Positions 5,572 to 24,189 are shown, counted from the first letter of the stretch. The stretch: 58,014 nt of DNA from Gemmatimonadota bacterium (GCA_041498715.1 JBGQIW010000004.1:1-58014), one strand, 5' to 3'. The notes: generated by a model from the sequence alone, not told the origin. Translations and numbers: made by a program.

Positions 5572-6789
5572 CTACTGGAAGATGTACGACGCGCCCAGCG
5601 CGAAGGTGACCTGGTCCTTGTGCAGGGTCCCGTCGGTGGCGGGGAAGACCAACAGGTTCGAGCGGTCGTAGCGGATCTCCGGCCGGATGAGCACTGCATC
5701 CCACCGCTTGATGTTCAGCGTGAACGTGCCGCTGCCGAACTTCTGCCCGGTGTTCACCGGGAAGCCCAGGACACCCGAGGTGCGAGCGCCGTCTTTGTCG
5801 TCCATGTAGTCGCCGCGGAGGGCGACGGTCAGGATCGGGCTCACGTCGACCGCCGCCCAGAGCCCCGCAGCCCACCACTTCGCCGTCTGCCCCACCGCCG
5901 GCAGGTCCTTTTCCTCCCCGTAGTCGCCCTGCAGGTTGAGCGTCGCCTTACCGACCTTCCGGGTCACCAGGAGGTCCAGCCCGTACCGGTTCCCGCTGGG
6001 CGTCACCCCGGCCACGGCGGCCTTCTCGTTGCCGAAGTACCCCACCACTCCGATCGTCGTCAGCGTGTCGGGCGTGATCCCCAACCGACCCATGAACGAC
6101 TTCTTGGAGTTGTTGTCCTGCACCACGTCCCACCCGTTGATCAGCGCCAGCTCGACGTCCACCTTCGGATCCGGCTTCGCATCCAGCCGCAGGCCCGTCA
6201 TGGTGAAGTTCTCGACGTAGATGAACTGGTTGCCCTCGGAGAGGTTGGGGTTGACCACGTCCTCGATCACCTCGAGCCCCAGCAGCGTCACGAACTTGCC
6301 GGCCTTGAACTGGACGTACTTCCCGGCGCCCGCCGGAATGTTGACCGTCGCGTAGGCCTGCTCGACGTCGCCGTTGGTCCCCAGGTTGAGCCCGGCGGAC
6401 TGGAGCACCGGCGCGTTCTGCCCGAACAGCAGATCGACGTGGGCCCCCGCGTCCCACTTGTCGGTGGCCACCGGCTTGTCCAGCGTCAGCTTCGCCGCGT
6501 TCAGCTCGATCTGATCGTGGAACCGGTCGTAGAGCCGGCCGACGATGGGACTCCCCGCGCCACCCGTGTGCCGGGTCGAGTACGTGTAAGACGTGGTCAC
6601 GTACCCGCTGAGGTTCACCTTCGACCCGGCCGGGGCCGCGGGCGCCGCCGCCTTGGCCGTGTCCGCCTTGGCGGTGTCCGCCCCCGCCTGCTTCGCCGAG
6701 TCTGCCGGAGCCTGAGCCGCGATTGGCTCGACTCCGGCGGTTACCGCTGCGAGTGCGATCAACGTGACGAACCCGCCGAACCGATGCAT
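5572..6789 (-). CDS. Outer-membrane beta-barrel porin (DUF1597/BBP2-like; this family is often found next to ammonium transporters)
   Basis: Signal peptide, GKFVTLLGLEVI, NGWDVVQDNN, PEIRYD, aromatic C-terminus (YIFQ). RBS GGAGG upstream of the ATG at 6789. Confidence 0.8.
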   Translation of the reverse strand: MHRFGGFVTLIALAAVTAGVEPIAAQAPADSAKQAGADTAKADTAKAAAPAAPAGSKVNLSGYVTTSYTYSTRHTGGAGSPIVGRLYDRFHDQIELNAAKLTLDKPVATDKWDAGAHVDLLFGQNAPVLQSAGLNLGTNGDVEQAYATVNIPAGAGKYVQFKAGKFVTLLGLEVIEDVVNPNLSEGNQFIYVENFTMTGLRLDAKPDPKVDVELALINGWDVVQDNNSKKSFMGRLGITPDTLTTIGVVGYFGNEKAAVAGVTPSGNRYGLDLLVTRKVGKATLNLQGDYGEEKDLPAVGQTAKWWAAGLWAAVDVSPILTVALRGDYMDDKDGARTSGVLGFPVNTGQKFGSGTFTLNIKRWDAVLIRPEIRYDRSNLLVFPATDGTLHKDQVTFALGASYIFQ

Positions 6790-6843
6790 GGATCTGTCCT
6801 CCAGCCTGAGGGTGAACGGCGCCGCGGGAACCTCCCTACGGCC

Positions 6844-6886
6844 ACAACGAAACCGCCCCCGCGACGGCAGCGTGCGCGAGGGCGGT
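6844..6886 (-). terminator. Terminator-like hairpin in the porin leader
   Basis: 12-bp stem ACCGCCCUCGCG/CGCGGGGGCGGU followed by UUCGUUGU (weak U tract), about 55 nt before the porin start. Confidence 0.5.
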
Positions 6887-6929
6887 GAGCACGGGGTCGG
6901 GCCAAGGCCCGGGTGACCGGGTGGACCGA

Positions 6930-7019
6930 TCACGGCGACTCCGCGCGGCTCAGCCGCAAACGCCTACGGTTTCGGGCGACCCGGGCACGCGGCTCGGGAC
7001 GCCGGACAATTCTGTTCAT
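6930..7019 (-). CDS. Putative Arg-rich leader peptide MNRIVRRPEPRARVARNRRRLRLSRAESP (29 aa)
   Basis: ATG about 27 nt downstream of a -10 box; 11 Arg codons including AGA, CGA and AGG; followed by the hairpin above. Confidence 0.45.
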   Translation of the reverse strand: MNRIVRRPEPRARVARNRRRLRLSRAESP

Positions 7020-7046
7020 AGCTACCTGGGTAGAACGGACGACCGC

Positions 7047-7075
7047 AGCTTACGGCTTGCCGCTAGTCTTGTCAA
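7047..7075 (-). promoter_or_regulatory. Sigma70 promoter for the porin leader
   Basis: TTGACA-N17-TAAGCT on the minus strand. Confidence 0.75.
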
Positions 7076-7155
7076 GGGATTCTTGCACAATCCGCACAAC
7101 TGACAATGCAATCTTGATGATTTGTTAACGATCTCATTTGAGGGAGTGCTCATAT

Positions 7156-7172
7156 TGTGCTGATCATGCACA
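7156..7172. promoter_or_regulatory. Palindromic operator candidate TGTGC-N7-GCACA
   Basis: Dyad 6 bp upstream of the amt -35, in the AT-rich spacer between divergent promoters; two GCACAA direct copies at about 7086-7098. Confidence 0.4.
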
Positions 7173-7178
7173 CTGAGC

Positions 7179-7207
7179 TTGACAGCCATCCGCCATTTAT
7201 GTATTCT
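7179..7207 (+). promoter_or_regulatory. Sigma70 promoter for amt-glnA-glnK
   Basis: TTGACA-N17-TATTCT. Confidence 0.78.
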
Positions 7208-7239
7208 CCCCTCACAGGCGACCACCCGAACCGGATTCC

Positions 7240-7338
7240 ATGGACCCTCTTGGCGGCACCCAATCCAAGGCCCGAAACGCCGGGGCGCGCGCTCTTCGGA
7301 GCGCGCGCCCGGTGTCGCCGCGCGGGAGCTTCGGGTAG
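7240..7338 (+). CDS. Putative leader peptide MDPLGGTQSKARNAGARALRSARPVSPRGSFG (32 aa)
   Basis: ATG...TAG between the promoter and the terminator; the last codons overlap a sequence complementary to the terminator 5' arm. The SD is weak. Confidence 0.4.
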   Translation: MDPLGGTQSKARNAGARALRSARPVSPRGSFG

Positions 7339-7355
7339 TCCTCCGCAGGTTGCGG

Positions 7356-7399
7356 AAGCCCCTGCGCCCGGACGGGGAGCGCAGGGGCTTTGCTTTTTT
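7356..7399 (+). terminator. Intrinsic terminator (attenuator) upstream of amt
   Basis: 12-bp stem AAGCCCCUGCGC/GCGCAGGGGCUU plus UGCUUUUUU, ending about 24 nt before the amt start. Confidence 0.8.
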
Positions 7400-7422
7400 G
7401 AACCGCTCAGCCCAGGACCGGC

Positions 7423-8934
7423 GTGAGACGCCTCACCTTGCTTACCGCCCTCCTCGCTCTCGCTACGCCGCTCACGTTGGCGGCCCAGGCGGCGCCACAC
7501 GGCGCGGCCATCGGCGTGGCCGCCACCGACCCGGCGGCCGCGAATGCCGTCGCGCTCAACCTGGCGTGGATTCTCATCGCCGCGTTCCTCGTCATGCTCG
7601 TGCAGGCCGGCTTCGCCTTGGTCGCCACCGGTTTCACCCGCGCCAAGAACGCCGGTCACACCATGACGATGAACTTCACGGCGTACGCCATCGCGATGCT
7701 GGTCTACTGGGCGGTCGGTTTCGGGCTGCAGGGCGGAGGCGTGGGCGTCCTGAGCACCCTGGGCGGCTACGACCGGCTGCACCAGGAGCTGGTGCTGACG
7801 TTGTTCGGCCGCCGGTTCGGCCTGGTGGGCACCACCGGGTTCTTCCTGGCAGGCGCGGCCTCCGCCGCGCCGATCCTCGCCTACTTCGTGCTCCAGATGG
7901 TCTTCATGACCACGGCGGTAACGATCCCGGCGGGGGCCCTCGCCGAGCGTTGGAAGTTCTCCGCCTTCGCCGTGTTCAGCGTTCCCACCGCGGCGGCGAT
8001 CTATCCGATCTACGCCAACTGGGTCTGGGGCGGGGGATGGCTCTCCCAACTGGGTGTCAACTTCGGGCTGGGGCATGGCCACGTGGACTTCGCCGGGTCG
8101 TCCGTGGTTCACATGACCGGCGGCGTCATCGCTCTGGCTTCCTGCTGGCTCCTCGGCGCGCGCCGCGGCAAGTACAACTCCGACGGCACGGCGAACGCCA
8201 TCCCCGGGCACAGCATCCCGATGGCGCTGGCCGGAACGCTGATCCTGATGTTCGGCTGGTTCGGCTTCACCGCCGGGGCCACGCTGGACGCCACCGATCT
8301 CAGAATCACCGTGATCGCCGCCAACACGATGCTCGCCAGCGCGGCCGGCTGCGTCGCGGCGATGCTGTACATGTACGCCCGCTCCGGCAAGCCCGACCCC
8401 TCGATGCTCGCCAACGGAGCGCTCGCAGGTCTGGTCGCGATCACGGCGCCCTGCGCCTTCGTCGCGGCGCCGGCCGCGGTACTGATCGGCGCCGTGGCGG
8501 GCGTGCTGGTGTGCATCTCGGTCTTCTTCGTGGAGCGCCGTCTTCGGCTCGACGACCCCGTGGGCGCGATCTCCGTCCACGGTGTGAACGGCCTGTGGGG
8601 GGTGCTGGCCCTCGGTCTCTTTGCGGACGGCACCTACGGGGCCGGCTTGAACGGCGTGCGCGGGAACGTGACCGGCCTCTTCTACGGCGACCCGGGCCAG
8701 CTCGTGGCCGAGGCGATCGGCGGGCTCACGAACCTCGTCGCGGTCGGCACGATGACCGTCCTGGCCTGGAACCTCGCGGGCCTCCTGGCCCGAGGGCACC
8801 GGGTCTCCGCCGAGGCCGAGGAGATCGGACTCGACCTGCCCGAGATCGGCGCGCTGGCCTATCCCGACACGACCGACCTGGCCGCAGCCACCGTGTTGAC
8901 TCACACCCCCGGCGCGAAGCGAGCCGCTGCATGA
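7423..8934 (+). CDS. amtB: Ammonium transporter (Amt family) with signal peptide
   Basis: [57 protein letters not shown]. Confidence 0.93.
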
Positions 8935-8995
8935 CGCCGGGCCCGTTCCGCCCGTTCCCGTTCACCCCTTGCGAACCGTTTTTCTTGAGGATGCG

Positions 8996-10453
8996 ATGGC
9001 GACTACCGTGAAGGCAGCTACAGTGCGCCGCTCGGCCCCGGCCGAGGTGAAGAAAGTGCTGGACCTGATCAAGCAGAAGAACATCCAGGTCGTGGACGTG
9101 AAGTTCGTGGACCTGCCGGGGACCTGGCAGCACTTCTCCATCCCGGCGGCCACGCTGGACGAGGACATGATCAAGGATGGCCTCGGCTTCGACGGCTCCT
9201 CGATCCGCGGCTTCCAGGCGATCAACGAGAGCGACATGCTGCTCATGCCGGACGCGTCGACGGCGTTCGTGGACCCGGTGCTCACCGTGCCCACGCTCTC
9301 GCTCACCTGCGACGTGTACGACCCGATCACGCTCGAGCCCTACTCGCGTGACCCCCGCTTCATCGCGTTCAAGGCCGAGGAGTATCTCAAGACCACCGGG
9401 ATCGCCACCGCGTCGTACTGGGGACCGGAGGCCGAGTTCTTCATCTTCAACTCGGTTCGGTTCGACCAGAACGCCCACGAGGGCTACTACCACATCGACA
9501 GCGAGGAAGGGATCTGGAACTCGGGCCGGAACAGCGCCCCGAACCTCGGCCACCGGCCGCGTCACAAGGAGGGCTACTTCCCGGTCCCGCCGGTGGACCG
9601 ACTTCAGGACGTGCGGTCGAAGATCATGCTCGCCATGATCGAAGCGGGAGTGCCGGTCGAGGTTCAGCACCACGAGGTGGGCACCGCCGGGCAGGCGGAG
9701 ATCGACATCAAGTTCGGTCCGTTGGTGCAGACGGCCGACCGGCTGATGATCTACAAGTACATCATCAAGAACGTCTGTCACAGCCTCGGCTTTACGGCGA
9801 CGTTCATGCCGAAGCCCCTGTTCGGCGACAACGGCTCGGGCATGCACTGCCATCAGTCGCTCTGGAAGGGCGACACCCCGCTCTTCTTCGATGCCAACGG
9901 ATACGCACTCATCTCGGAGACCGCCCGGTATTACATCGGCGGGCTCATCAAGCACGCGGCGGCGCTGCTCGCCATCTGCGCGCCGACCACCAACAGCTAT
10001 CGCCGCCTCGTCCCCGGCTTCGAGGCACCGGTGAACCTGATGTACTCGGCGCGGAACCGCTCGGCGATCTGCCGGATTCCGGTGTACTCCACCAACCCCA
10101 AGGCCAAGCGGGTCGAGTTCCGGGCGCCGGACCCGGCCGCCAACCCCTACCTGGCGTTCGCCGCGATGCTCATGGCCGGGCTGGACGGGATCAAGAACAA
10201 GATCGAGCCGCCAGCCCCGATCGACGAGGACCTCTATGAGATCGACGACGAGCGGAAGAAGCTCATCAAGCAGGTGCCCGGCACCCTGACCGAATCGCTG
10301 GACGCGCTCGAAAACGACCACGCGTTCCTGCTCGCCGGGGACGTGTTCACCCAGGATGTACTCGATGCCTGGCTGAGTCTCAAGCGGAAGGACGTCGCGG
10401 CGGTTACCCTGCGGCCCCATCCATATGAGTTCTTCATGTATTACGACGCGTAG
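8996..10453 (+). CDS. glnA: Glutamine synthetase type I (GSI-beta)
   Basis: [49 protein letters not shown]; the adenylylation-site Tyr is retained (DLYE). Confidence 0.97.
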
Positions 10454-10469
10454 CGGAGCAGGAAGTCCA

Positions 10470-10506
10470 AGCGCCGGCGGCCGGTCCTCGACCGGTCGCC
10501 GGCGCT
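10470..10506. other. 17-bp GC-rich hairpin between glnA and glnK
   Basis: AGCGCCGGCGGCCGGTC-CTC-GACCGGTCGCCGGCGCT; no clear U tract. Confidence 0.55.
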
Positions 10507-10600
10507 GTACTGTCTTGCGGCGGGCGGGGCGATCCGCTAGCTCATAGTGGAGCGACAGCCGCCGGCCCCCCGAGACCGCCACCTTCACGGAGTTGGACGG

Positions 10601-10993
10601 ATGAAACTGATCACCTGCATCATTCGGCCCGAACGCCTCGCCGAGGTGAAGGCCGCGTTGTTCCGGGCCGGCGTCACCGGCATCTCCATCAGCCGCGTGA
10701 GCGGGCACGGCGGGGAGCGGGACCTCGTCGAGCACTACCGCGCGTCGTCGATCGTGCTCGAGTTCCGGGAAAAGGTGAAGATCGAGATGGCCGTGTCCGA
10801 GCCGTACGTGGAGCCCACCATCAACGCCATCCTCGCCTCGGCCCGGACCGGTGAGGTGGGAGACGGCAAGATCTTCGTACAGCCGCTCGAGCGCGTCATC
10901 CGCATCCGGACCGGCGAGTCGGACAACGCGGCCCTGACACCGGTCACGGCCGACGAGGTGCAGCGCAACGCGCTCGAGGCCGCCGGCAAGTAG
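10601..10993 (+). CDS. glnK: PII nitrogen regulatory protein (Thermus/Deinococcus-type GHGGE T-loop)
   Basis: [29 protein letters not shown]; 130 aa. Confidence 0.92.
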
Positions 10994-11049
10994 GCCGCCG
11001 GGGGACCGGTTCGCCCGGCGGCTTGGGTCCGTCGTATCTTCCCCTCCCT

Positions 11050-12723
11050 ATGACCACACGCAAGAGCGCCGCCATCACCGACGGGGTGCAGCGCACCCCC
11101 AACCGCGCCATGCTCCGTGCCGTGGGTTTCGGCGACGGAGACTTCGGCAAGCCCATCATCGGGATCGCGAACGGCTACAGCACGATCACGCCGTGCAACG
11201 CGGGCCTCGACGTGCTCGCGCGGCGGGCCGAAGCAGCGATACGTCAAGCCGGGGGCATGCCGCAGCTCTTCGGCACCATCACCGTGAGCGACGGCATCTC
11301 GATGGGGACGGAAGGCATGAAATATTCCCTTGTGTCCCGCGAAGTGATCGCGGACGCGATCGAGACCGCCTGCCAGGCGCAGAGCATGGACGGCGTGCTC
11401 GCCGTCGGCGGCTGCGACAAGAACATGCCGGGCGCCCTGATGGCCATGGCCCGGATGGACATCCCGGCCGTGTTCGTCTATGGCGGCACCATCAAGCCCG
11501 GTCACCTGGACGGACGGGACTTGACGATCGTGAGCGCGTTCGAGGCCGTGGGCGAGTTCAGCGCCGGCCGGATCGGGCGGGAGGAGCTGCTGGCCGTCGA
11601 GCGACACGCGTGCCCCGGGCAGGGCTCGTGCGGCGGGATGTACACGGCGAACACCATGTCGTCGGCGATCGAGGCGATGGGCATGAGTCTGCCGGGATCG
11701 TCCACCATGGCGGCCGAGGACGCGGAGAAGGGGGACAGCGCCGCCCGCTCGGCCGAGCTGCTGATGGAGGCGGTGCGGGCCGACCGCCGCCCCAGCCGGA
11801 TTCTCACCCGGCAGGCGCTCGAGAACGCCATCGCCGTCGTGATGGCCCTCGGCGGCTCGACCAACGCCGTCCTCCATCTCCTGGCCATCGCCCACGCCGC
11901 GCAGGTGCCACTCACGCTCGACGACTTCGAGACCATCCGGGCCCGCGTGCCCGTGCTGGCGGAGCTCAAGCCGTCCGGCCGGTTCGTCGCGACCGACCTT
12001 CACCGGGCCGGTGGCGTGCCCCAGGTGATGAAGATGCTGCTGGCCCACGGACGACTCCACGGCGAGGCGCTCACCATCACCGGCGAGACCGTGGCGGAGG
12101 CGCTTCAGGACGTGCCGGACGCGCCTCCCGCAGGACAGGAGGTCATCCGTCCCTGGAGCCGGCCGGTCTACCCCGAGGGTCACCTTGCGATCCTGCGCGG
12201 CAACCTGGCGACCGAGGGCGCGGTGGCCAAGATCACCGGGATCAAGACGCACCAGATGACCGGCCCGGCGCGCGTCTTCGAGTCGGAAGAGACGTGCCTC
12301 GAGGCGATCCTCGCCGGCGGCATCCGCCCGGGGGACGTGATCGTGATCCGGTACGAGGGTCCCAAGGGTGGCCCCGGGATGCGGGAGATGCTCGCGCCGA
12401 CGTCGGCGATCATCGGCGCCGGGCTGGGCGACTCGGTCGGCCTGATCACCGACGGCCGCTTCTCCGGAGGCACCTACGGCATGGTGGTGGGCCACGTCGC
12501 ACCCGAGGCGGCGGTGGGCGGCGGGATCGCGCTGGTGGAGGAGGGCGATTCGATCACGATCGACGCCGACCGGCGCCTCCTCCAGCTCGATGTGCCGGAC
12601 GACGTGCTCGCCCGTCGCCGCGCGGCCTGGCGACCGCGGCCGCCACGCTATACGACGGGTGTGCTCCACAAGTATGCCAAGCTCGTCTCCAGCGCGAGCC
12701 TCGGCGCCGTAACCGACCTCTGA
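11050..12723 (+). CDS. ilvD: Dihydroxy-acid dehydratase
   Basis: [53 protein letters not shown]. Confidence 0.96.
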
Positions 12724-12746
12724 CGCTTCTTTCCAGGAACCCGCTC

Positions 12747-14783
<2,037 letters not shown>

Positions 14784-14786
14784 CGC

Positions 14787-16504
<1,718 letters not shown>

Positions 16505-16550
16505 GCGTCTCCCCAATACCAACCTGGTGAGCGGTGCGAAGAAGGGGGGA

Positions 16551-16626
16551 GTGAGAAGCAAGAGATAGAAAGGGAGGCCGGGGAGGAGGTTCCGTCCTGC
16601 ACCTTCGCTACCTCTTGGCTTCTCAC
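16551..16626. repeat. Imperfect inverted repeat between leuC and leuD
   Basis: GTGAGAAGCAAGAGATAGAAAGG (16551-16573) versus the reverse complement of 16602-16626, GTGAGAAGCCAAGAGGTAGCGAAGG. Confidence 0.65.
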
Positions 16627-18038
16627 TTCGCGCCGGGCAGATAGTCCCGGACGTCCACCAGCCGCCCGGCGATGGCCGCAGCCGCGGCCATGGTCGGGCT
16701 CATCAGATGGGTCCGCCCGCCTTTGCCCTGCCGCCCCTCGAAGTTCCGGTTCGAGGTCGAGGCGCAGCGCTCGCCGCTCCCGAGAATGTCGTCGTTCATG
16801 CCGAGGCACATCGAGCAGCCGGCGTTGCGCCACTCGAAGCCCGCGTCGCGAAACACGCGGTCCAGACCCTCGGCCTCCGCCGCGGCCTTCACCCGCATCG
16901 AGCCGGGCACGACCATCGCCCGCACGCCGCTCGCCACCCGGCGGCCCCGGACCACGGCGGCCGCCGCGCGGAGATCCTCGATCCGGGCGTTGGTGCAGGA
17001 GCCCAGAAACACACGGTCCACCGGTACGCCCTGGAGCGGCGTTCCCGGCGCGAGCCCCATGTACTCGAGCGCCCGCGCCGCCGCGCGCCGGTCGCTGTCC
17101 CGCTCGTAGCCCCCGGGATCGGGCACCCTGGCGGTGATGTCGGCGACCATGCCCGGGTTGGTCCCCCAAGTGACCTGCGGCGCCAACGCCGCCGTGTCGA
17201 CCACGACCTCGCGGTCGTACACGGCGCCCGCATCGCTCGCGAGGTTGCGCCAGCCCGCGACCGCGGCGTCCCAGGCGCGGCCCGAGGGTGCGCGGGGCCG
17301 GCCGGCGAGATACGCGAACGTGGTCTCGTCCGGCCCGATCATGCCCGCCCGCGCGCCTGCCTCGATCGACATGTTGCAGATCGTCATCCGACCTTCCATC
17401 GAGAGCGCCCGGATCGCCTCGCCGGTGTACTCGATGACGTAGCCGGACGCGCCGTCCGTGCCGATTCGCCCGATCAGCGCGAGAATGAAATCCTTGGGCG
17501 TCACCCCGGCGGCGGGCCGGCCGGTGAAGCGGACCTCCATGGTCTTCGGGCGGGCCTGGACCAGGCACTGGGTGGCGAGCACATGCTCCACCTCGCTCGT
17601 GCCGATCCCGAAGGCCAACGCGCCGAACGCCCCATGGGTGGACGTGTGCGAGTCGCCGCAAACGATCGACATGCCCGGCTGGGTGGCGCCCAGCTCCGGG
17701 CTGATCACGTGCACGATCCCCTGCCCCGGCGAGTCCAGCCCGAACAGCTCGACCGCGAACTCGCGGGCGTTCGCCTCCAGCACGCTCACCTGTTTGGCGG
17801 CGACGGGATCGGCGATCGGGAGGCGGCGATCGCCGGTGGGCACGTTGTGGTCCACCGTGGCCAACGTGCGTTCCGGACGGCGCACCTGCCGTCCGGCCAG
17901 GCGGAGTCCGTCGAAGGCCTGGGGTGACGTCACCTCGTGTACGAGATGAAGATCCACGTACAGGAGCGCCGGCCCGTCGGCCGGCTGGTGCACGACGTGG
18001 CTCGCCCAGACCTTTTCGAACAGCGTGCGGGGCGCCAT
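16623..18038 (-). CDS. leuC: 3-isopropylmalate dehydratase large subunit
   Basis: [54 protein letters not shown]. Confidence 0.97.
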
Positions 18039-18041
18039 CGG

Positions 18042-19127
18042 CTACCCGGCGACCGGCGCAGGCGCGGCCGGGCGGGCGTCGGCCGGGTCCCGCCGGCCCG
18101 GGCCGGTCCCGCGCTCCTGCCCGCCCGCGCCTTCCTCGGACCAGGGCATCATCGCCCGGAGCTTGCGACCGACCTGCTCGATGGGATGATCGTGGTCAAT
18201 CTGTCGCATGCGCTCGAAGTTGGGCCGGCCCGCCCTGTTCTCACCCAGCCACTCCTTCGCAAAGCGCCCGTCCTGGATCTCCTTCAGGATGCGCTGCATC
18301 TCCGCCCGGGTCTCCGCGGTGATGAGCCGTGGTCCGCGGGTGTAGTCGCCGTACTCGGCGGTATCGCTGATGGAGTAGCGCATGAAGCCGAGCCCGCCGC
18401 GGTACATGAGATCGACGATGAGCTTGAGCTCGTGCAGGCACTCGAAGTAAGCCATCTCCGGGGAGTAGCCCGCGGCGACGAGGGTCTCGAACCCGGCTTT
18501 CACCAGCGCGGTCGTGCCGCCGCACAGGACGGCCTGCTCCCCGAAGAGGTCGGTCTCGGTCTCCTCGCGGAATGAGGTCTGGAGCACACCGGCTCGGGTG
18601 CAGCCGATCCCGGCGGCATAGGCCAGGGCGTTGCCCAGCGCCTCGCCGCTCGCATCCTGATGCACCGCCACCAGCGCCGGCACCCCCCGTCCGGCCTCGA
18701 ACTCGCTCCGCACCAGATGGCCGGGCGACTTGGGGGCCACCATCGAGACGTCCACGCCCTTGGGGGGCGCGATTTCGCCGTAGTGGATGTTGAAGCCGTG
18801 CGCGAACATCAGAGCCTTGCCGGGCGTGAGCCCCGCCGCGACGCCCGACTCGTAGATCGCGCGGCCGTCCTGATCCGGCACCAGCATCATGATCACATCC
18901 GCCGCTTTCGCCGTCTCGGCGACCGGCCTCACGTCGAGACCGGCGGCGGCGGCCCTGGCCCACGAGGCACCGCCGGGCCGGAGCCCGACCACCACGCTCG
19001 CGCCGCTGTCCCGCAGGTTCAGCGCGTGGGCATGGCCCTGGCTGCCGAAACCGATGATGCCGAACGTCCGGCCCAGCAGGCGAGAGCGATCGGCGTCGAG
19101 GTCGTAGAACACCTGGGGGGTCGCCAT
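18042..19127 (-). CDS. ilvC: Ketol-acid reductoisomerase
   Basis: [46 protein letters not shown]. Confidence 0.96.
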
Positions 19128-19128
19128 G

Positions 19129-19647
19129 TCAGACGGTCTCCGACGTGAGTGTGAGCTGGGCGGTGGCCGGCGCCCGCTCGAGCGCCACCGAGCCGCTGCG
19201 CGCCACGTCCAGCACGTCGAAGCGCTCCAGCGCACGGAGGAAGGACAGGACGAACGCCTCGGGGCCGCTGACCTCCAGGATCACGGCCTCGGGGGACTCG
19301 TCCACGATGGCGGCCTTGTAGAGCAACGCGACGTCCAGCAGCTCGGCGTAGCGCGCCTCGCCCGGCCGCACCTTCACCAGCGCCAGCTCGCGGGTCACGC
19401 CGTCGCGCGAGGGGAACGCGGCGACCTCCCGCACGCCGACCACCTTGTCCAACTGCTTTGCCGTCCGGTCCGCCGTCGCCTGGTCCGTCTGCATCATGAT
19501 CGTCAGCCTCGCGAGTCCCGGCGAGGCACTCGGCCCCACCGCGATGCTCTTGATGGAAAGGTTGCGCCGCCGGAGCATTCCGAAGGCGCGGTTCAGGGTG
19601 ACCAGCTCGTGCTGCAACAGCACCGACAGCGTATGGCTGCCGCTCAT
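19129..19647 (-). CDS. ilvN: Acetolactate synthase small (regulatory ACT) subunit
   Basis: ACT fold, [21 protein letters not shown]; lies between ilvB and ilvC. Confidence 0.88.
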
Positions 19648-21341
19648 GCCGGCACCAGCGGCGCCGGCTCACCTTCGATGGGCTCCGAGAGCGACGCGCC
19701 CGGCGGGATCATCGGGAAGACGTTGGCTTCCTGCTCGATGACGAACTCCACCAGCGCGGGACCCGGCACGTCCATCGCCGCCCGCACCGCGTCTGCGGTG
19801 CGGTTGGCCTCCGCCACGCGCCAGCCGGGCACCCCGTAGGCCTCGGCCAGCTTCACGTAGTCGGGGCTCCAGATCGGCGTGGCGGAGTAGCGGCGGCCGT
19901 GGAAGAACTGCTGCCACTGCCGCACCATGCCGAGGTAGCCGTTGTTGAAGATCGCCATCTTCACCGGGATCCGCTCCTGCACCATCGTGGCGATCTCCTG
20001 CATGTTCATCTGAAAGCCGCCGTCGCCGGAGATGGCCCAGACCGGCTCGTCCGGCCGCGCCAGCCGCACTCCCATCGCCGCGGGCACCGCGAACCCCATG
20101 GTGCCCAGCCCGCCGGACGTGATGTGAGTGTTGGGCCGCTCGTAGGGGAAGAGCTTCGCCACCCACATCTGATGCTGGCCCACGTCGGAAACGATGGTGC
20201 AGTGCCCGCCCGTCACCTCGTGCAGGGTGCGGAGGATGCCCTCGGGCGAGAGATCACCCCGGTAGTGCTCCGTCCGCAGCTTGGTGAAACCTTCGATCTC
20301 GCCCCGCCAGGCGTCGCACTCCCGCGGCCGCACCAGCGGAAGCAGCCGGCCGAGGATCTCCCGGCAGTCCCCGACCAGGCCCAGCGCCGTCGGCACGTTC
20401 TTGCCGATCTCGGAGGCATCCAGCTCGATGTGGACGATCGTGGCCCGCGGCGCGAAGGCAGCCGTATTGCCGGTCACCCGGTCGTCGAACCTGAGGCCGA
20501 TGCCGACGATGAGGTCGGCGTGCTGGATGGCCCGGTTCACGTGCACCTCGCCGTGCATGCCGGGCATGCCGAGGTGCAGCGGGTGCGATTCGGGGAATCC
20601 GCTGATGCCGAGCAACGTCGTGATCACGGGCATCCCGGTGCGCTCGGCCAGGCAGCGGAGCTCGTCGTATGCGCCGGCCAGCAGCACTCCGTGCCCCGCC
20701 ATGATCAGCGGGCGGCTGGCCTCCCCGATCAGCCGGGCCGCGTGGGCCAGCTCGGCGTCCGGGCCGGCGGGCGAGGGCGCCGCCCGCGGGCGCCTTGACG
20801 CGGCCGGCTGGGCCGCCGGCGTGTAGGTGATCTTCTGGTTCTGCACGTCCTTCGGTACGTCCACCAGCACGGGCCCCGGCCGTCCCTCCTGGGCAATCGC
20901 GAGCGCGTCGCGGAGCGCGCCCGCGAGCAGGGTGACGTCCTCAACCAGCACGTTGTGCTTGGTGATCGGCTGGGTGATGCCGATGATGTCCGTCTCCTGG
21001 AAGGCGTCCCGGCCGATCATGTTGCGGGAGACTTGGCCCGTGATGGCGACCACCGGCGTGCTGTCCATGTGCGCGGTGGCCAGGCCGGTCACGAGATTGG
21101 TGGCGCCGGGTCCCGACGTCGCCACGCACACGCCCGGACGGCCGCTGGCACGGGCGTAGCCATCGGCGGCGTGCGCGGCGGCCTGCTCGTGCCGCACGAG
21201 GACGTGGCGGAGGGCCGGGTACTCGGGCAGCGCGTGGTAGAAGGGCATGATGGCCCCGCCGGGGTAGCCGAACATCAGGTCCACGCCCTGCTCCAACAGG
21301 ACACGGCACATGAGCTGGGCGCCCGTCAGGGTCTCCGTCAT
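19644..21341 (-). CDS. ilvB: Acetolactate synthase large subunit
   Basis: FGYPGGAIM, RHEQAAAHAADGYAR, TPP motif GDGGFQMN...NN, GMVRQWQ. Confidence 0.96.
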   Translation of the reverse strand: MTETLTGAQLMCRVLLEQGVDLMFGYPGGAIMPFYHALPEYPALRHVLVRHEQAAAHAADGYARASGRPGVCVATSGPGATNLVTGLATAHMDSTPVVAITGQVSRNMIGRDAFQETDIIGITQPITKHNVLVEDVTLLAGALRDALAIAQEGRPGPVLVDVPKDVQNQKITYTPAAQPAASRRPRAAPSPAGPDAELAHAARLIGEASRPLIMAGHGVLLAGAYDELRCLAERTGMPVITTLLGISGFPESHPLHLGMPGMHGEVHVNRAIQHADLIVGIGLRFDDRVTGNTAAFAPRATIVHIELDASEIGKNVPTALGLVGDCREILGRLLPLVRPRECDAWRGEIEGFTKLRTEHYRGDLSPEGILRTLHEVTGGHCTIVSDVGQHQMWVAKLFPYERPNTHITSGGLGTMGFAVPAAMGVRLARPDEPVWAISGDGGFQMNMQEIATMVQERIPVKMAIFNNGYLGMVRQWQQFFHGRRYSATPIWSPDYVKLAEAYGVPGWRVAEANRTADAVRAAMDVPGPALVEFVIEQEANVFPMIPPGASLSEPIEGEPAPLVPA

Positions 21342-21367
21342 CTCCCGGCCGCCCGGTGCGAAACCGC

Positions 21368-21451
21368 GTAAACAGTGAAGAATGAACAGTGAACGGGGGA
21401 CTCCGCTGCTCCATGGAGCTCCCGGTTCATTGTTGACCGTTCACTGTTCAC
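21368..21451. repeat. Inverted arrays of 4+4 heptamers (consensus GTGAACA/G) between leuA and ilvB
   Basis: GTAAACA GTGAAGA ATGAACA GTGAACG ... GGTTCAT TGTTGAC CGTTCAC TGTTCAC. Confidence 0.8.
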
Positions 21452-21465
21452 GCTGTTCCCCGGCA

Positions 21466-23016
21466 TCACACCCCCCACAGATAGCTCGCGTTCAGGGCGC
21501 TCGCTTCCAGGCGGTCGGCATGGCGCGACTTGTTGAGCGCGTGGATCAGCGCCCGGGCGCTGGCCTCCACGATGTCGGTGGAGGCGCCCTGCCCGCTCAG
21601 CGACTTTCCGTCCACCCGCGCCTGGAGGAACACCTGCCCCACGCTGTCCTTGCCCGGCGTGACCGACCGGAGCTGCAGGCCGATGACTTCGACCTGGCGG
21701 CGAAGAATCTCGCTGATCGCGGTGAACGCCGCCGCGATGGGTCCGTCGCCGCTGCCCCGGGCGGTCCGCTCGCCGCTCCAGGGCCCCGTCAGCCGGACGG
21801 TCGCGCTGGCCGGGACGTTGCCGCAGACGACCTCGAGATGGGTCAGCTGATACTCCTCGGGCGCGTCGTGGAACGAGTCGTGGAGCAACGCGAGCAGATC
21901 CTCGTCGAGGATCGCGCGCTTGCGGTCGGCGAGCGTGGTGAACCGCTGGTAAATCTCGCCCAGCTTTTCCGGGTCCAACTCGTAGCCGAGCTCGCGGAAG
22001 CGCTGCTCCAGGGCGTGCCGGCCCGAGTGCTTGCCGAGAACCAGGGTGGACTTGGGGATGCCGACCGTCTCCGGCCGCATGATCTCGTAGGTCTCGCCGT
22101 TCCGCAGCATCCCGTGCTGATGGATGCCGGACTCGTGGGCGAACGCGTTCCGGCCGACGACCGCCTTGTTGGGCTGGGGGAAGACCCCGGTGAGGTAGGA
22201 GAGCAGCTGGCTGGTGCGGTAGATCTCCTGGGTCACGATGTTGGTGCGAAAGCCGAGCTGGGGCCGCACGACCGCGGCCATGACCAGCTCCTCCAGCGCG
22301 GCGTTGCCCGCCCGCTCACCAATGCCGTTCACCGTGCATTCCACCTGGCCGGCCCCCGCCTGGATCGCCGCGATCGAGTTGGCGACGGCGAGGCCCAGAT
22401 CGTCGTGGCAGTGGGCGCTGAAGGTCACGCGGTCCCCGCCCGGCACCCGCTCCCGCACCGAGTGGAACATCGCGGCGTACTCCGGCGGCAGCGCGAAGCC
22501 GACGGTGTCAGGCAGGTTGATCGTGGTCGCGCCCTCGGCGATCGCGAGCTCCACCACCCGGCACAGGAAGTCGGGATCGGTGCGGCTGGCGTCCTCGGCG
22601 GAGAACTCGACATCGTCCGTGAACGACCGGGCCCGGCGGACGCCCTGGCGGGCCATCTCCAGCGCCTCCTCGCGGTCGATCCGGAGTTTTTCCCGGAGAT
22701 GCAGGTCGGAGGTGGAGAGGAACACGTGGATCCGCGAGCGTCCGGCTGCGCGCAGCGCCTCGCCCGCGAGATCGATGTCCCGCTCCACGCACCGGGCCAG
22801 CGCGGCGACGACCGGCCGGCGTACCTCGCTCGCGATGTCGCGGACGCTGCGGAAATCCCCGTCGGACGCCGCCGGGAAGCCGGCCTCGATCACGTCCACG
22901 CCGAGCGCGTCGAGCTGGCGGGCGAGCCGGAGCTTCTCCTCGGCGCTCAGGCTGTTGCCGGGGGCCTGCTCTCCGTCCCGGAGGGTCGTGTCGAAGACGA
23001 TCACGTCGCTTGCCAT
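21466..23016 (-). CDS. leuA: 2-isopropylmalate synthase
   Basis: FDTTLRDGEQ, HCHDDLGLA, NGIGERAGNA, HESGIHQ, C-terminal regulatory domain. Confidence 0.96.
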   Translation of the reverse strand: MASDVIVFDTTLRDGEQAPGNSLSAEEKLRLARQLDALGVDVIEAGFPAASDGDFRSVRDIASEVRRPVVAALARCVERDIDLAGEALRAAGRSRIHVFLSTSDLHLREKLRIDREEALEMARQGVRRARSFTDDVEFSAEDASRTDPDFLCRVVELAIAEGATTINLPDTVGFALPPEYAAMFHSVRERVPGGDRVTFSAHCHDDLGLAVANSIAAIQAGAGQVECTVNGIGERAGNAALEELVMAAVVRPQLGFRTNIVTQEIYRTSQLLSYLTGVFPQPNKAVVGRNAFAHESGIHQHGMLRNGETYEIMRPETVGIPKSTLVLGKHSGRHALEQRFRELGYELDPEKLGEIYQRFTTLADRKRAILDEDLLALLHDSFHDAPEEYQLTHLEVVCGNVPASATVRLTGPWSGERTARGSGDGPIAAAFTAISEILRRQVEVIGLQLRSVTPGKDSVGQVFLQARVDGKSLSGQGASTDIVEASARALIHALNKSRHADRLEASALNASYLWGV

Positions 23017-23042
23017 GGGAACTCCGTCCGCCATTGATGCCT

Positions 23043-23081
23043 GAAACGCGAAGCGCCGCGAACCCGGAGGTCCGCGGCGCT
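23043..23081 (-). terminator. leu-ilv attenuator terminator
   Basis: Stem AGCGCCGCGG/UCGCGGCGCU followed by UCGCGUUUC. Confidence 0.7.
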
Positions 23082-23105
23082 GGGTTGATTCGTCTGAGAC
23101 GCTGC

Positions 23106-23198
23106 TTACACTGTCTCGCCCGGCACGCCGCGGATCCCCTGCCCGATAAGCACGAGCAGAAGGCTGAGGCCGACGATAAGGACGAGCTGCTGGGTCAT
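23106..23198 (-). CDS. leu/ilv leader peptide MTQQLVLIVGLSLLLVLIGQGIRGVPGETV (30 aa)
   Basis: 7 Leu, 5 Val and 3 Ile codons; lies between a promoter and a terminator; UCCGCGGCG within it can pair with the terminator 5' arm. Confidence 0.85.
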   Translation of the reverse strand: MTQQLVLIVGLSLLLVLIGQGIRGVPGETV

Positions 23199-23243
23199 TA
23201 CGATGAGTCTCTCGGTGCCGATTGTTTATACCACCGAGTGACA

Positions 23244-23272
23244 AGCCTACGCAAGGCGATTCCGGCCGTCAA
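23244..23272 (-). promoter_or_regulatory. Sigma70 promoter of the leuA-ilvBNC-leuCDB operon
   Basis: TTGACG-N17-TAGGCT. Confidence 0.75.
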
Positions 23273-23287
23273 GGGGCGTCGCCCCCC

Positions 23288-23801
23288 TCAAGGCTTGAGC
23301 GCAATCCGGGCGGTGCGGTCGATCCGGTTGAGCTGCAGGGGGATGCGCTGCTCGGCCAGATACTCGTCCGTCGCCTGTCTGGCGCCCTGCCAGTGGCCGT
23401 AGTCGTCGAGGATCAGGACCCCGGCGCGCGCGAGCCGGGGGTAGAGATGTCGCAGCTCGTGACGGGTGGAGTCGTACCAGTCGGTGTCCAGCCGGAGCAG
23501 GCTGATCTGCTGCGGCGCCCTGTCCGGCAGCGTGTCCTCGACTTCCCCTTCACGAAGTGCACCCGCGCCGCGTCGTAGCCCGTGCTCAGGACCGCCTGCC
23601 GCACGTCCTCCAGCGAGGCGTAGAGCCAGCTCCGGCCGTCGGGCTGGGTTACCCGAGACGACCTGCGAGGCCGCGTCGCGACCCTTGAAGTCGACGTCCT
23701 GAGCGGTCGGGGACGGCATGCCCTCGAAGGTGTCGAAGAGGTACAAGTCGCGGGACTGGTCCCCCAGCCGCCTTGACCAACCGCTTGACGATTTGCCGCA
23801 T
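23288..23801 (-). pseudogene. TylF/MycF/NovP-type O-methyltransferase remnant
   Basis: Fragments LYLFDTFEGMP, YASLEDVRQAV...VHFVKG and VEDTLP...LLRLDTDWYDST...DDYGHWQGAR need frame changes to join. The N-terminal half is missing after MRQIVKRLVKAAG. Confidence 0.8.
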
Positions 23802-23974
23802 CGGCGATGCCCCTCCGCGAGAAGCCGGAAGCTGAGCGAGCGACGAAGCTACCCAGACCACCAAACCGGGGCAAGCACGGCCACCGACACGATAGGCCAT
23901 TACAGAGAAAAGGGTTACGCAGAACCGCCGAGCCGCTCGACACCGCGCCGCGGGTTTCCCCGGACGCAGCCCGC

Positions 23975-24002
23975 TTGACGCATCCACCCGCTTGCATAAG
24001 AT
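23975..24002 (+). promoter_or_regulatory. Sigma70 promoter of the gltB leader
   Basis: TTGACG-N16-TAAGAT; the leader ATG lies 6 nt after the -10 (leaderless). Confidence 0.65.
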
Positions 24003-24008
24003 TGCAGC

Positions 24009-24080
24009 ATGATGATTAGCGCGCTCGCCCCGGCCGCCGTCAACCTTATTCTCGCCAGCCCTCTGGGAGCGACCGGGTAG
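24009..24080 (+). CDS. Putative gltB leader peptide MMISALAPAAVNLILASPLGATG (23 aa)
   Basis: Leaderless uORF; its last codons GGGAGCGACCGGGU are complementary to ACCCGGCCCGCUCCC, which includes the terminator 5' arm. Confidence 0.65.
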   Translation: MMISALAPAAVNLILASPLGATG

Positions 24081-24103
24081 ATAGTGCATAGCTGATGGAC
24101 CCG

Positions 24104-24133
24104 GCCCGCTCCCCTGACGGAGCGGGCTTTTTT
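24104..24133 (+). terminator. Intrinsic terminator (attenuator) upstream of gltB
   Basis: 9-bp stem GCCCGCUCC/GGAGCGGGC plus UUUUUU. Confidence 0.85.
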
Positions 24134-24189
24134 GTTGCCCCGCCGCCGGCCTCTCCGGTCGGCTCGAGGGCCACTCCAACGGAGGCACC

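Follow-up and report, generated by a model that had tools for sequence, protein, structure and literature searches.

How does a bacterium, probably of the phylum Gemmatimonadota, match ammonium uptake and the synthesis of glutamine and glutamate to its nitrogen supply? Ammonium uptake and the glutamine synthetase/glutamate synthase (GS-GOGAT) pathway are the textbook case of promoter-level control, exerted by NtrC/sigma54, GlnR/TnrA, NtcA or AmtR, and the exceptions at the RNA level are few, namely the glutamine riboswitch and the ANTAR proteins. The question is raised by a stretch of 58,014 nucleotides, referred to below as the window, which is contig C4 of genome G000 (2.75 Mb in 152 contigs, 80% complete, ≈ 70% G+C). 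Here the amt-glnA-P-II operon, a divergently transcribed BBP2 porin gene, and gltB are each preceded by a sigma70-type promoter, a short upstream open reading frame (uORF) of 23-32 codons, and a G+C-rich terminator hairpin followed by a U tract. An earlier examination of the DNA alone, the sequence-only reading, had pointed out this layout and proposed that the three transcription units form one nitrogen regulon governed by leader-peptide attenuation. It had also seen no nitrogen regulator gene in the window, in keeping with a scan of 20 window open reading frames (ORFs), among which none was recognizable. Its statement that ribosome-mediated attenuation is not known for amt, glnA, and gltB agrees with a full-text literature search, which returned no leader-peptide attenuation of these three genes and nothing on attenuators in Gemmatimonadota; a mention of gltB in PMC13236596 proved to be unrelated.

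From the comparative analysis described here we lean towards the view that the leaders are ribosome-dependent transcription attenuators. Their anatomy, their conservation, their pairing potentials, and the genome-wide specificity of their motifs are matters of direct observation.

Common layout of the leaders

The three leaders, and with them the leuA control leader, were located where the sequence-only reading had placed them, and in each of the three the uORF start, the frame, the stop, and the terminator are kept in relatives. As these relatives are kin, the counts given throughout overstate independence, the number of independent leader families being ≈ 4. The full-length leaders fold into their terminators, a distance of 22-55 nt being left to amt, to the porin gene or to gltB. 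A promoter 3' of a terminator, by which the latter would be bypassed, had been named as a refuting observation; a gap of only 22-55 nt leaves no room for it, and no other promoter-like site was found between the terminators and the three genes. A promoter scan of positions 6500-24500 returned three promoter-like sites against 0.9 expected, two of them being the promoters of the glnA operon and of gltB. Leaderless translation starts are plausible in G000, as three long genes of this genome begin 6-7 nt after a -10 box.

The leaders have a layout in common and do not form one sequence class. Class I comprises the leaders of the amt-glnA-P-II operon, of the porin gene, and of a P-II-amt pair on contig C46, which carry a palindrome (GTGC-N7-GCAC) and the hexamer CGAAAC; the gltB leader, with neither of the two motifs, represents class II.

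The leader of the amt-glnA-P-II operon

The elements of this leader are, from upstream to downstream:

7157-7171, palindrome GTGCTGATCATGCAC (GTGC-N7-GCAC), 7 nt 5' of the -35 box of the glnA operon; candidate operator or activator site, kept in relatives
7179-7207, plus strand, glnA-operon promoter; -35 box TTGACA at 7179-7184, 17 nt spacer, -10 box TATTCT at 7202-7207, 10/12 matches
7240-7338, plus strand, uORF 1 (MDPLGGTQSKARNAGARALRSARPVSPRGSFG, then stop); 32 codons and TAG, with CGA AAC at 7273-7278
7283-7310, plus strand, 12-bp G+C hairpin inside uORF 1; possible pause hairpin
7320-7332, plus strand, antiterminator 5' strand (GCGCGGGAGCTTC) in the last codons of uORF 1; predicted pairing with 7356-7368
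7356-7400, plus strand, intrinsic terminator of the glnA-operon leader; hairpin 7356-7390, T tract to 7400, 22 nt 5' of amt

A DNA search of 401 family genomes recovered the divergent pair of glnA and porin leaders in 10 genomes of the genus; in 5/10 (G015, G003, G008, G013, and G016) the leader stands directly before glnA, with no amt gene. The -35 box TTGACA is invariant in 10 relatives. An ATG or GTG exactly 33 nt before CGAAAC opens uORF 1 in 8/9 relatives (G003 excluded), the ninth, G013, offering an in-frame GTG at -60, which follows the -10 box by 8 nt. The distance from hexamer to stop is exactly +63 nt, likewise in 8/9, and both TAG and TAA are used, while the region between start and hexamer is poorly conserved apart from the start itself. 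All 12 pairs of the hairpin inside uORF 1 are kept in 9 sequences, both partners having changed at 3 of these pairs. In an alignment of 9 sequences, 92% of cells are paired in the 7-bp core of the antiterminator (GCGCGGG with CCTGCGC). A natural leader mutant is found in G003 (L057, G003:C360), where ≈ 57 nt are deleted, with CGAAAC, the G+C hairpin, and the greater part of the antiterminator strand being lost; what is left comprises the promoter and a weakened terminator.

The porin leader and a third class I unit

The porin leader is arranged on the opposite strand as follows:

7083-7097, second palindrome (GTGCGGATTGTGCAA on the minus strand), 7 nt 5' of the porin -35 box
7047-7075, minus strand, porin promoter; TTGACA at 7075-7070, 17 nt, TAAGCT at 7052-7047, kept in 6 relatives
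6930-7019, minus strand, uORF 2 (MNRIVRRPEPRARVARNRRRLRLSRAESP, then stop); 29 codons and TGA, with CGA AAC at 6974-6969
6913-6957, minus strand, two conserved hairpins; GCGGCTGAGCCGC at 6957-6945, and GTGATCGG..CCGGTCAC at 6933-6913, which holds the uORF stop
6844-6886, minus strand, intrinsic terminator of the porin leader; hairpin 6886-6852, tail to ≈ 6844, conserved

The weaker -10 box of the porin promoter (TAAGCT) was missed by the simple promoter scan; it was recognized through its conservation and was also found by the genome-wide motif scan described below. The porin starts with the ATG at 6789, followed by a signal peptide; the listed ORF begins too early, and the leader measures ≈ 250 nt. 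Promoter, a uORF of 28-29 codons, two hairpins, and terminator are common to the porin leaders of 7 genomes, with a hairpin block that is nearly invariant in the alignment and supported by the fold. The uORF begins with ATG and is in frame with CGAAAC in 6/7, G013 having only a TTG in frame, and in G015 the pair reads CGA AAT, a synonymous exchange of the Asn codon AAC.

When G000 was scanned for terminators lying before genes, 31 candidates were obtained, one of them before a P-II gene (assigned by Pfam) and an amt paralogue on contig C46:

≈ 17205-17219 of G000:C46, palindrome of the P-II-amt leader, with TTGACA, 17 nt, TATACT, and a terminator

Its uORF starts with a GTG 7 nt after the -10 box and has 26 codons, CGA AAC being in frame. 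The leader is kept in G011, G015, and G017, in frame in 4/4 including G000; in G011 an ATG with a Shine-Dalgarno sequence takes the place of the leaderless GTG. The link to nitrogen put forward by the sequence-only reading is strengthened by this third leader of the same kind.

Both class I motifs are specific. A promoter (at most one mismatch in the -35 box, TAnnnT as -10 box) followed by CGAAAY within 25-95 nt occurs at exactly 3 sites in the 2.75 Mb of G000, and just as many sites, exactly 3, combine the palindrome GTGC-N7-GCAC with TTGACA 7 nt further on and a -10 box; in both cases these are the three nitrogen units. The palindrome is conserved in relatives within the genus and in genera g34, g54, and g80. 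Judged by these sequences, class I is a small nitrogen regulon with a promoter-proximal palindrome, which is probably the site of a predicted nitrogen regulator. Since a conserved palindrome 5' of each class I -35 box points to such an additional DNA-binding regulator, attenuation, the mode named by the sequence-only reading, is probably not the only control. A sigma54 promoter in place of the palindrome was considered and dropped, the spacing being one base short and the GG not conserved; the sigma54 DNA-binding domain is present in 4/4 near-complete relatives and was not found in G000.

Class I leaders outside the genus

In a pattern search of the 401 family genomes, 11/16 other genomes of the genus matched, and elsewhere the matches were scattered, near the level of a reversed-pattern control; outside the genus, those matches that also carry the palindrome were examined. 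Genus g34 has a glnA leader with uORF, in-frame CGA AAC, and terminator, as well as two leaders with in-frame CGA AAC before a signal-peptide gene, which a Pfam scan of one of them (L101) assigned to the Gcw_chp family. In g80, a glutamine-synthetase-like gene is preceded by an in-frame uORF, with no terminator in the region read. At L114 (G005:C123) all class I elements come together (perfect palindrome, promoter, uORF MRIGSALTALAHLQRNCALLRSVAPG, and terminator) ≈ 250 nt 5' of a thiolase gene, with two short ORFs lacking a Pfam match in between. Genus g54 contributed three glnA leaders (L090, L092, and L093) that share a conserved leaderless ATG and a uORF ending at or beside the glnA start; they are taken up again below. 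The stretch from the palindrome to the -35 box holds a second CGAAAC in g54.

The gltB leader and the leuA control

Class II is represented by the following elements, to which the leader of the neighboring branched-chain operon is added:

23975-24002, plus strand, gltB promoter; TTGACG, 16 nt, TAAGAT, the -10 box lying within the conserved TGCATAAGATTGCA
24009-24080, plus strand, uORF 3 (MMISALAPAAVNLILASPLGATG, then stop); 23 codons and TAG, its first ATG at the 7th base after the -10 box, leaderless or nearly so
24065-24077, plus strand, antiterminator 5' strand GGGAGCGACCGGG in the last codons of uORF 3; predicted helix with 24098-24112
24103-24137, plus strand, intrinsic terminator of the gltB leader; hairpin 24103-24128 and T tract, 9 bp with 98% of cells paired
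23043-23198, minus strand, leader of leuA-ilvBNC-leuCD; Leu/Ile/Val-rich uORF 23198-23106 (MTQQLVLIVGLSLLLVLIGQGIRGVPGETV), terminator stem 23080-23053, terminator to 23043; internal control

Orthologues of gltB were identified in 24/41 genomes, G000 included, and 21 upstream regions were aligned. Two of the genomes (G004 and G007) are unpublished, so that gltB counts are given with and without them; none of the 22 class I leaders considered below stems from an unpublished genome. A uORF that begins with ATG and runs for 20-25 codons through GGGAGCGACCGGG is present in 17/17 genomes of the genus (15/15 without the unpublished ones), in the same frame in 16/17 (14/15), and its ATG follows the -10 box by 7-10 nt in 17/17. 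The stop is found at motif start +13 in 12/21 rows, as TAG, TAA, or TGA, and at +19 in 5 rows, 3 of them published. Insertions and deletions between start and motif come in multiples of 3. The encoded peptides, such as MIRALAPVAVNLILVRSVGATG and MITLLARIPLTVVLVRSLGATGSR, carry a Leu/Ile/Val cluster directly before the antiterminator codons, with 3-6 such codons within the six that precede the antiterminator strand, and Leu-Ile-Leu is exchanged for VVL, LIT or LIV through multi-base changes. The 13-bp antiterminator is paired in 94% of cells in 21 sequences, 3 pairs having changed on both sides, and in G024 the uORF strand and both the 5' and 3' arms of the terminator change together.

The motif TGCATAAGATTGCA (TGCA-N6-TGCA; region listed as 24003-24016) covers the gltB -10 box and is kept in nearly all genomes of the genus; this motif may serve as an operator in its own right, separate from the class I palindrome.

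In most relatives, the Leu/Ile/Val-rich leader of leuA and that of gltB stand back to back; in G000 ≈ 600 nt are inserted between the two, with a fragment of a TylF-type methyltransferase gene. The fragment (O-methyltransferase, minus strand, 23288-23997) corresponds to profile positions 123-259 of 264.

By its sequence, gltB most likely belongs with the class of branched-chain amino-acid leaders. It probably answers to the supply of branched-chain aminoacyl-tRNAs, because of the Leu/Ile/Val cluster and of its position divergent from the leuA-ilv leader. The single nitrogen regulon proposed by the sequence-only reading stands for amt-glnA-P-II and the porin, to which P-II-amt is added, but is not supported for gltB, which has a branched-chain-like peptide and no class I motifs.

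Alternative folds and proposed mechanism

Pairing of the terminator 5' arm with the end of the uORF was examined in transcripts cut just before the terminator 3' arm, by asking whether the minimum free energy structure pairs this arm with the last 24 nt of the uORF. Such pairing was found in 6/8 glnA leaders and in 11/18 gltB leaders (10/16 without G004 and G007). When a ribosome footprint of 30 nt was masked in the glnA leader of G000, pairing of the 5' arm amounted to ≈ 0.9 with the ribosome at codons 1-22 and fell to 0.46 at the stop codon. In the gltB leader of G000 it was 0.77 with the ribosome up to Leu14 and 0.14-0.31 at codons 15-16, a drop that marks Leu-Ile-Leu as the last stall positions still permitting the antiterminator. 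The leuA leader, with its Leu/Ile/Val uORF and terminator, showed the same masking behavior, and the sequence-only reading was right to treat it as an internal control of the same layout.

Both the masking and the cut-transcript folds fit the classical kinetic model of attenuation. Along this line, transcription would start at a strong sigma70-type promoter and yield a leader transcript that encodes a short uORF, the last 4-7 codons of which would form one strand of an antiterminator, the partner strand being the 5' arm of the terminator directly before the gene. A ribosome that reaches the uORF stop in step with the polymerase would cover the antiterminator strand, such that the terminator forms and transcription stops; a ribosome that lags or stalls upstream would permit the antiterminator to form and the genes to be transcribed. 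For class I, CGA-AAC, a rare Arg codon followed by Asn, may be a programmed slow or stall site, and the attenuator would be layered on the palindrome bound by the predicted nitrogen regulator. For class II, the Leu/Ile/Val cluster upstream of the antiterminator strand would provide the sensing codons. From this architecture we infer that ribosomes do translate the uORFs and that termination depends on conditions, and likewise what signal may be read.

Attenuation and its alternatives

The uORFs behave as reading frames under selection, to judge from start-codon turnover, fixed stops, the frame control, insertions and deletions of 3 nt, and the synonymous change of AAC to AAT. In this frame control, an ORF opened by ATG or GTG after the -10 box ran through the hexamer of the 22 class I leaders 21 times in frame 0, twice in frame 1, and 7 times in frame 2. 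Where the ORF reads CGA AAC, it ends 36-63 nt past the hexamer, before the terminator; in the other frames the distance is mostly at least 100 nt, with several exceptions.

Several observations weigh against the attenuation reading. As to the folds, pairing of the 5' arm with the uORF end is only partial in 2/5 porin leaders and is seen in 0/4 P-II-amt leaders; the complementarity claimed by the sequence-only reading accordingly holds for glnA and gltB, and for the porin only in part. Equilibrium folds of the full leaders favor the terminator except in gltB, and they do so in the leuA control as well. Covariation is thin, as the helices are nearly invariant. Conservation in relatives, which the sequence-only reading had wished to see examined, is borne out for uORF start, frame, stop, and structure, but hardly for covariation. 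The antiterminator core of the glnA leader shows no compensatory change in 9 sequences and does not exceed shuffles, and the gltB pairing measures were equaled by 5-29 of 500 shuffles. As to the codons, class I has no run of regulatory codons, only the single CGA-AAC pair. For its Arg the common codons CGC and CGG are never used, and selection may act on RNA letters rather than on amino acids. The presence of asparaginyl-tRNA synthetase (AsnRS) and glutamine-dependent AsnB in 5/5 genomes implies that no special direct link between Asn-tRNA and glutamine exists. Finally, in g54 the hexamer, as part of CCCGAAAC, occupies the 17-nt loop of a 36-nt hairpin (9-bp stem) that is invariant and located within the uORF, and it is read as Arg-Asn in 1/3 leaders, being out of frame in the other two because of a 1-nt insertion or deletion upstream; a terminator was not apparent by eye in 130 nt, no terminator scan having been run there. 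These g54 leaders are, on the sequence evidence, the main argument against a codon sensor.

That the terminators are constitutive, giving partial attenuation or stable leader RNAs, that the uORFs merely modulate basal read-through, and that all control is exerted at the promoter through the GTGC-N7-GCAC regulator, appears quite improbable. All class I promoters do have the palindrome at a fixed 7 nt from the -35 box, in G003 the glnA leader lacks its core by deletion and the promoter is retained, and in full-length leaders of glnA, the porin gene, and leuA the terminator reaches a probability of 0.98-1.0. Folding at equilibrium with masked ribosome footprints was set aside as uninformative, since the terminator dominates everywhere except in gltB, the leuA control included. 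An antiterminator strand conserved inside the end of the uORF, however, makes little sense for a constitutive terminator, gltB has a leader without such a palindrome, and textbook conditional behavior is known for the class of leaders to which the leuA leader, of like design, belongs.

What class I leaders respond to depends on how the hexamer is read. Only these six bases are common to the three class I leader families, whose structural contexts differ. CGA accounts for 4.9% of Arg codons in G000, as compared to 40% for CGC and 47% for CGG, and CGA-AAC pairs are not enriched in its genes (31 observed versus 32 expected). The exclusive use of so rare a codon implies that either the letters or a particular slow codon were selected, and not merely Arg. 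Class I would read either the supply of nitrogen-rich aminoacyl-tRNAs at CGA-AAC, or it would be recognized in trans by a factor binding CCCGAAAC.

A sensor of two codons in its full form we hold to be unlikely: inosine-wobble decoding of CGA in the P site would slow decoding of AAC, the ribosome would stall when nitrogen-rich aminoacyl-tRNAs are short, and the antiterminators before amt-glnA-P-II, P-II-amt, and the porin gene would be released. Attenuation would then govern the whole nitrogen regulon on top of a new regulator that binds the palindrome, and gltB would be connected on its own to branched-chain supply. Sensing of aminoacyl-tRNA supply is not supported in the form suggested by the sequence-only reading, a single CGA-AAC pair being conserved and the g54 hexamer being out of frame in 2/3 leaders. 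A variant in which Asn is read solely via tRNA-dependent transamidation was discarded, AsnRS and AsnB having scored over their cut-offs in 5/5 genomes searched. The idea that GAAAC pairs with the U tract of the terminator (GUUUC) was also abandoned, such a sequence not being conserved in the tails of 9 glnA terminators.

A serious rival, though itself unlikely, is antitermination by a trans-acting factor, that is, an RNA-binding protein, a processive antiterminator or a small RNA that would recognize the single-stranded (C)CCGAAAC of class I and decide between terminator and antiterminator, either directly or by blocking the uORF ribosome, the encoded amino acids being irrelevant. It would explain why the hexamer is base-invariant in 21/22 leaders and employs an Arg codon of such low frequency, and it would accommodate the invariant 9-bp hairpin of g54, which presents the hexamer in its loop irrespective of frame; the co-occurring DNA palindrome may be taken as a sign of a dedicated regulator. 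A pure switch of RNA and protein would not need uORF start, frame, and stop to be kept through start-codon turnover, however, and the conserved element comprises exactly two codons between variable flanking bases. The targets of ANTAR proteins are two hairpins in tandem, each with a hexanucleotide loop, of which the second overlaps the terminator; no such hexaloop pair was seen by eye in the folds of the leaders, no formal search having been run. Neither G000 (80% complete) nor any of 5 relatives (90-100% complete) reached the cut-off for the ANTAR domain (PF03861), which is a weak negative, as none of 14 control genomes scored either. A small RNA carrying GTTTCGG beside a terminator was sought in G000, and none of the 4 matches was convincing. 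A precedent for such a factor is provided by Geobacter, in which an ANTAR response regulator lets transcription pass the leader terminators of glnK and amtB (PMC2995071).

A small-molecule riboswitch, responding to glutamine or another nitrogen metabolite with the CCCGAAAC motif and the adjacent hairpin as aptamer, is very improbable. Conserved, structured leaders with terminators before nitrogen genes would suit it, as would the invariant 36-nt hairpin of g54, and a glutamine riboswitch exists in cyanobacteria. Yet six bases shared among three families in differing contexts are too little for an aptamer, and no Rfam family reached its gathering threshold anywhere in the window, with neither a glutamine riboswitch nor a T-box appearing even at E values up to 10; the best match in a leader (rnk_pseudo) scored 24.9 bits against a threshold of 55. 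Ribosome-dependent attenuation remains the reading towards which we lean.

Neighboring genes

The genes concerned are located as follows:

5572-6789, minus strand, BBP2 (OmpL-like) porin; Pfam, signal peptide
7423-8934, plus strand, amt; Pfam, start codon GTG at 7423
8969-10453, plus strand, glnA; Pfam
10547-10993, plus strand, P-II gene; Pfam
11023-12723, plus strand, ilvD; Pfam
23016-16623, minus strand, leuA-ilvB-ilvN-ilvC-leuC; Pfam, leuA ATG at 23016
16561-15896, minus strand, leuD; Pfam
24190-28803, plus strand, gltB (presumed glutamate synthase large subunit); ORF with orthologues at 64-93% identity, ATG at 24190

The ORF at 24190-28803 is presumed to be gltB, the name being the one given by the sequence-only reading and kept here. 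G000 is probably a member of Gemmatimonadota, the phylum in which the protein-atlas clusters nearest to its porin are most frequent. In its listed form, the P-II ORF encodes 148 amino acids with the P-II domain at residues 19-124, compared with the usual 112 amino acids of the P-II protein on C46; either its true start is further downstream, or short extensions are present. On the same strand, ilvD begins 30 nt 3' of the P-II gene, and no terminator was found in 10993-11023; ilvD may belong to the same transcript as amt-glnA-P-II, and nitrogen and branched-chain genes would then be linked in a further way. The region between ilvD and leuD (12771-16032) contains long minus-strand ORFs (463 and 367 amino acids) without Pfam match, overlapped by ORFs on the plus strand.

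Implications

If the attenuation reading is correct, ribosome-mediated attenuation would extend from amino-acid biosynthesis to central nitrogen assimilation, and nitrogen regulation would for the first time become accessible in Gemmatimonadota, a phylum widespread in soils for which hardly any regulatory genetics exists. The regulon would be small and delimited, defined by two new cis elements, GTGC-N7-GCAC and CGAAAC, and the BBP2 porin would be assigned to nitrogen acquisition. The gltB leader suggests a link, made by attenuation, between glutamate synthesis and branched-chain amino-acid supply; a comparable link exists in E. coli, where it is made by the protein Lrp.

Comparison with known systems

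Classical leader-peptide transcription attenuators are those of the trp, his, leu, ilvGMEDA/ilvBN, thr, and pheA operons. Like these, the present leaders combine, as far as their sequence tells, a promoter, a short leader ORF, a terminator right before the first gene, and, in the glnA and gltB leaders, a predicted antiterminator that excludes it; in the gltB and leuA leaders a cluster of Leu/Ile/Val codons lies just 5' of the antiterminator strand, as in the classical cases. They differ in their targets, which are nitrogen-assimilation genes (amt, glnA, P-II, porin, and gltB) instead of amino-acid biosynthesis, in the one invariant CGA-AAC pair that takes the place of a run of cognate codons in class I, and in the antiterminator, which here is the default early fold without a ribosome, with no strong 1:2 helix. 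In addition, several of the uORFs are leaderless, unlike those of the classical attenuators.

The glutamine riboswitch (glnA RNA and Downstream-peptide motifs) of cyanobacteria and marine bacteria is similarly a cis-acting RNA placed before nitrogen-assimilation genes; in contrast, the leaders described here match no Rfam family and contain a conserved reading frame.

In mycobacteria, leaderless short ORFs encoding polycysteine are reported to act as cysteine-responsive attenuators (bioRxiv 10.1101/834739). The resemblance lies in leaderless short ORFs at the 5' end of operons and in tuning by amino-acid supply, whereas the phylum, the runs of Cys codons, and the target genes are different (10.1101/834739).

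The promoters of the Geobacter GnfK/GnfR system, with its ANTAR response regulator acting at the glnK and amtB leader terminators, are RpoN-dependent, and the conserved RNA element is CAGGCAANGGCGCC (PMC2995071). The present leaders differ in having sigma70-type promoters and CGAAAC within a conserved uORF, no uORF being mentioned for Geobacter in those parts of its description (PMC2995071). Both systems place intrinsic terminators in the leaders of nitrogen genes of the glnK/amtB type, combine them with a regulator at the promoter level, which is predicted in the present case, and share a short conserved leader sequence (PMC2995071), and ANTAR-mediated antitermination in Geobacter is the closest nitrogen-gene system described.

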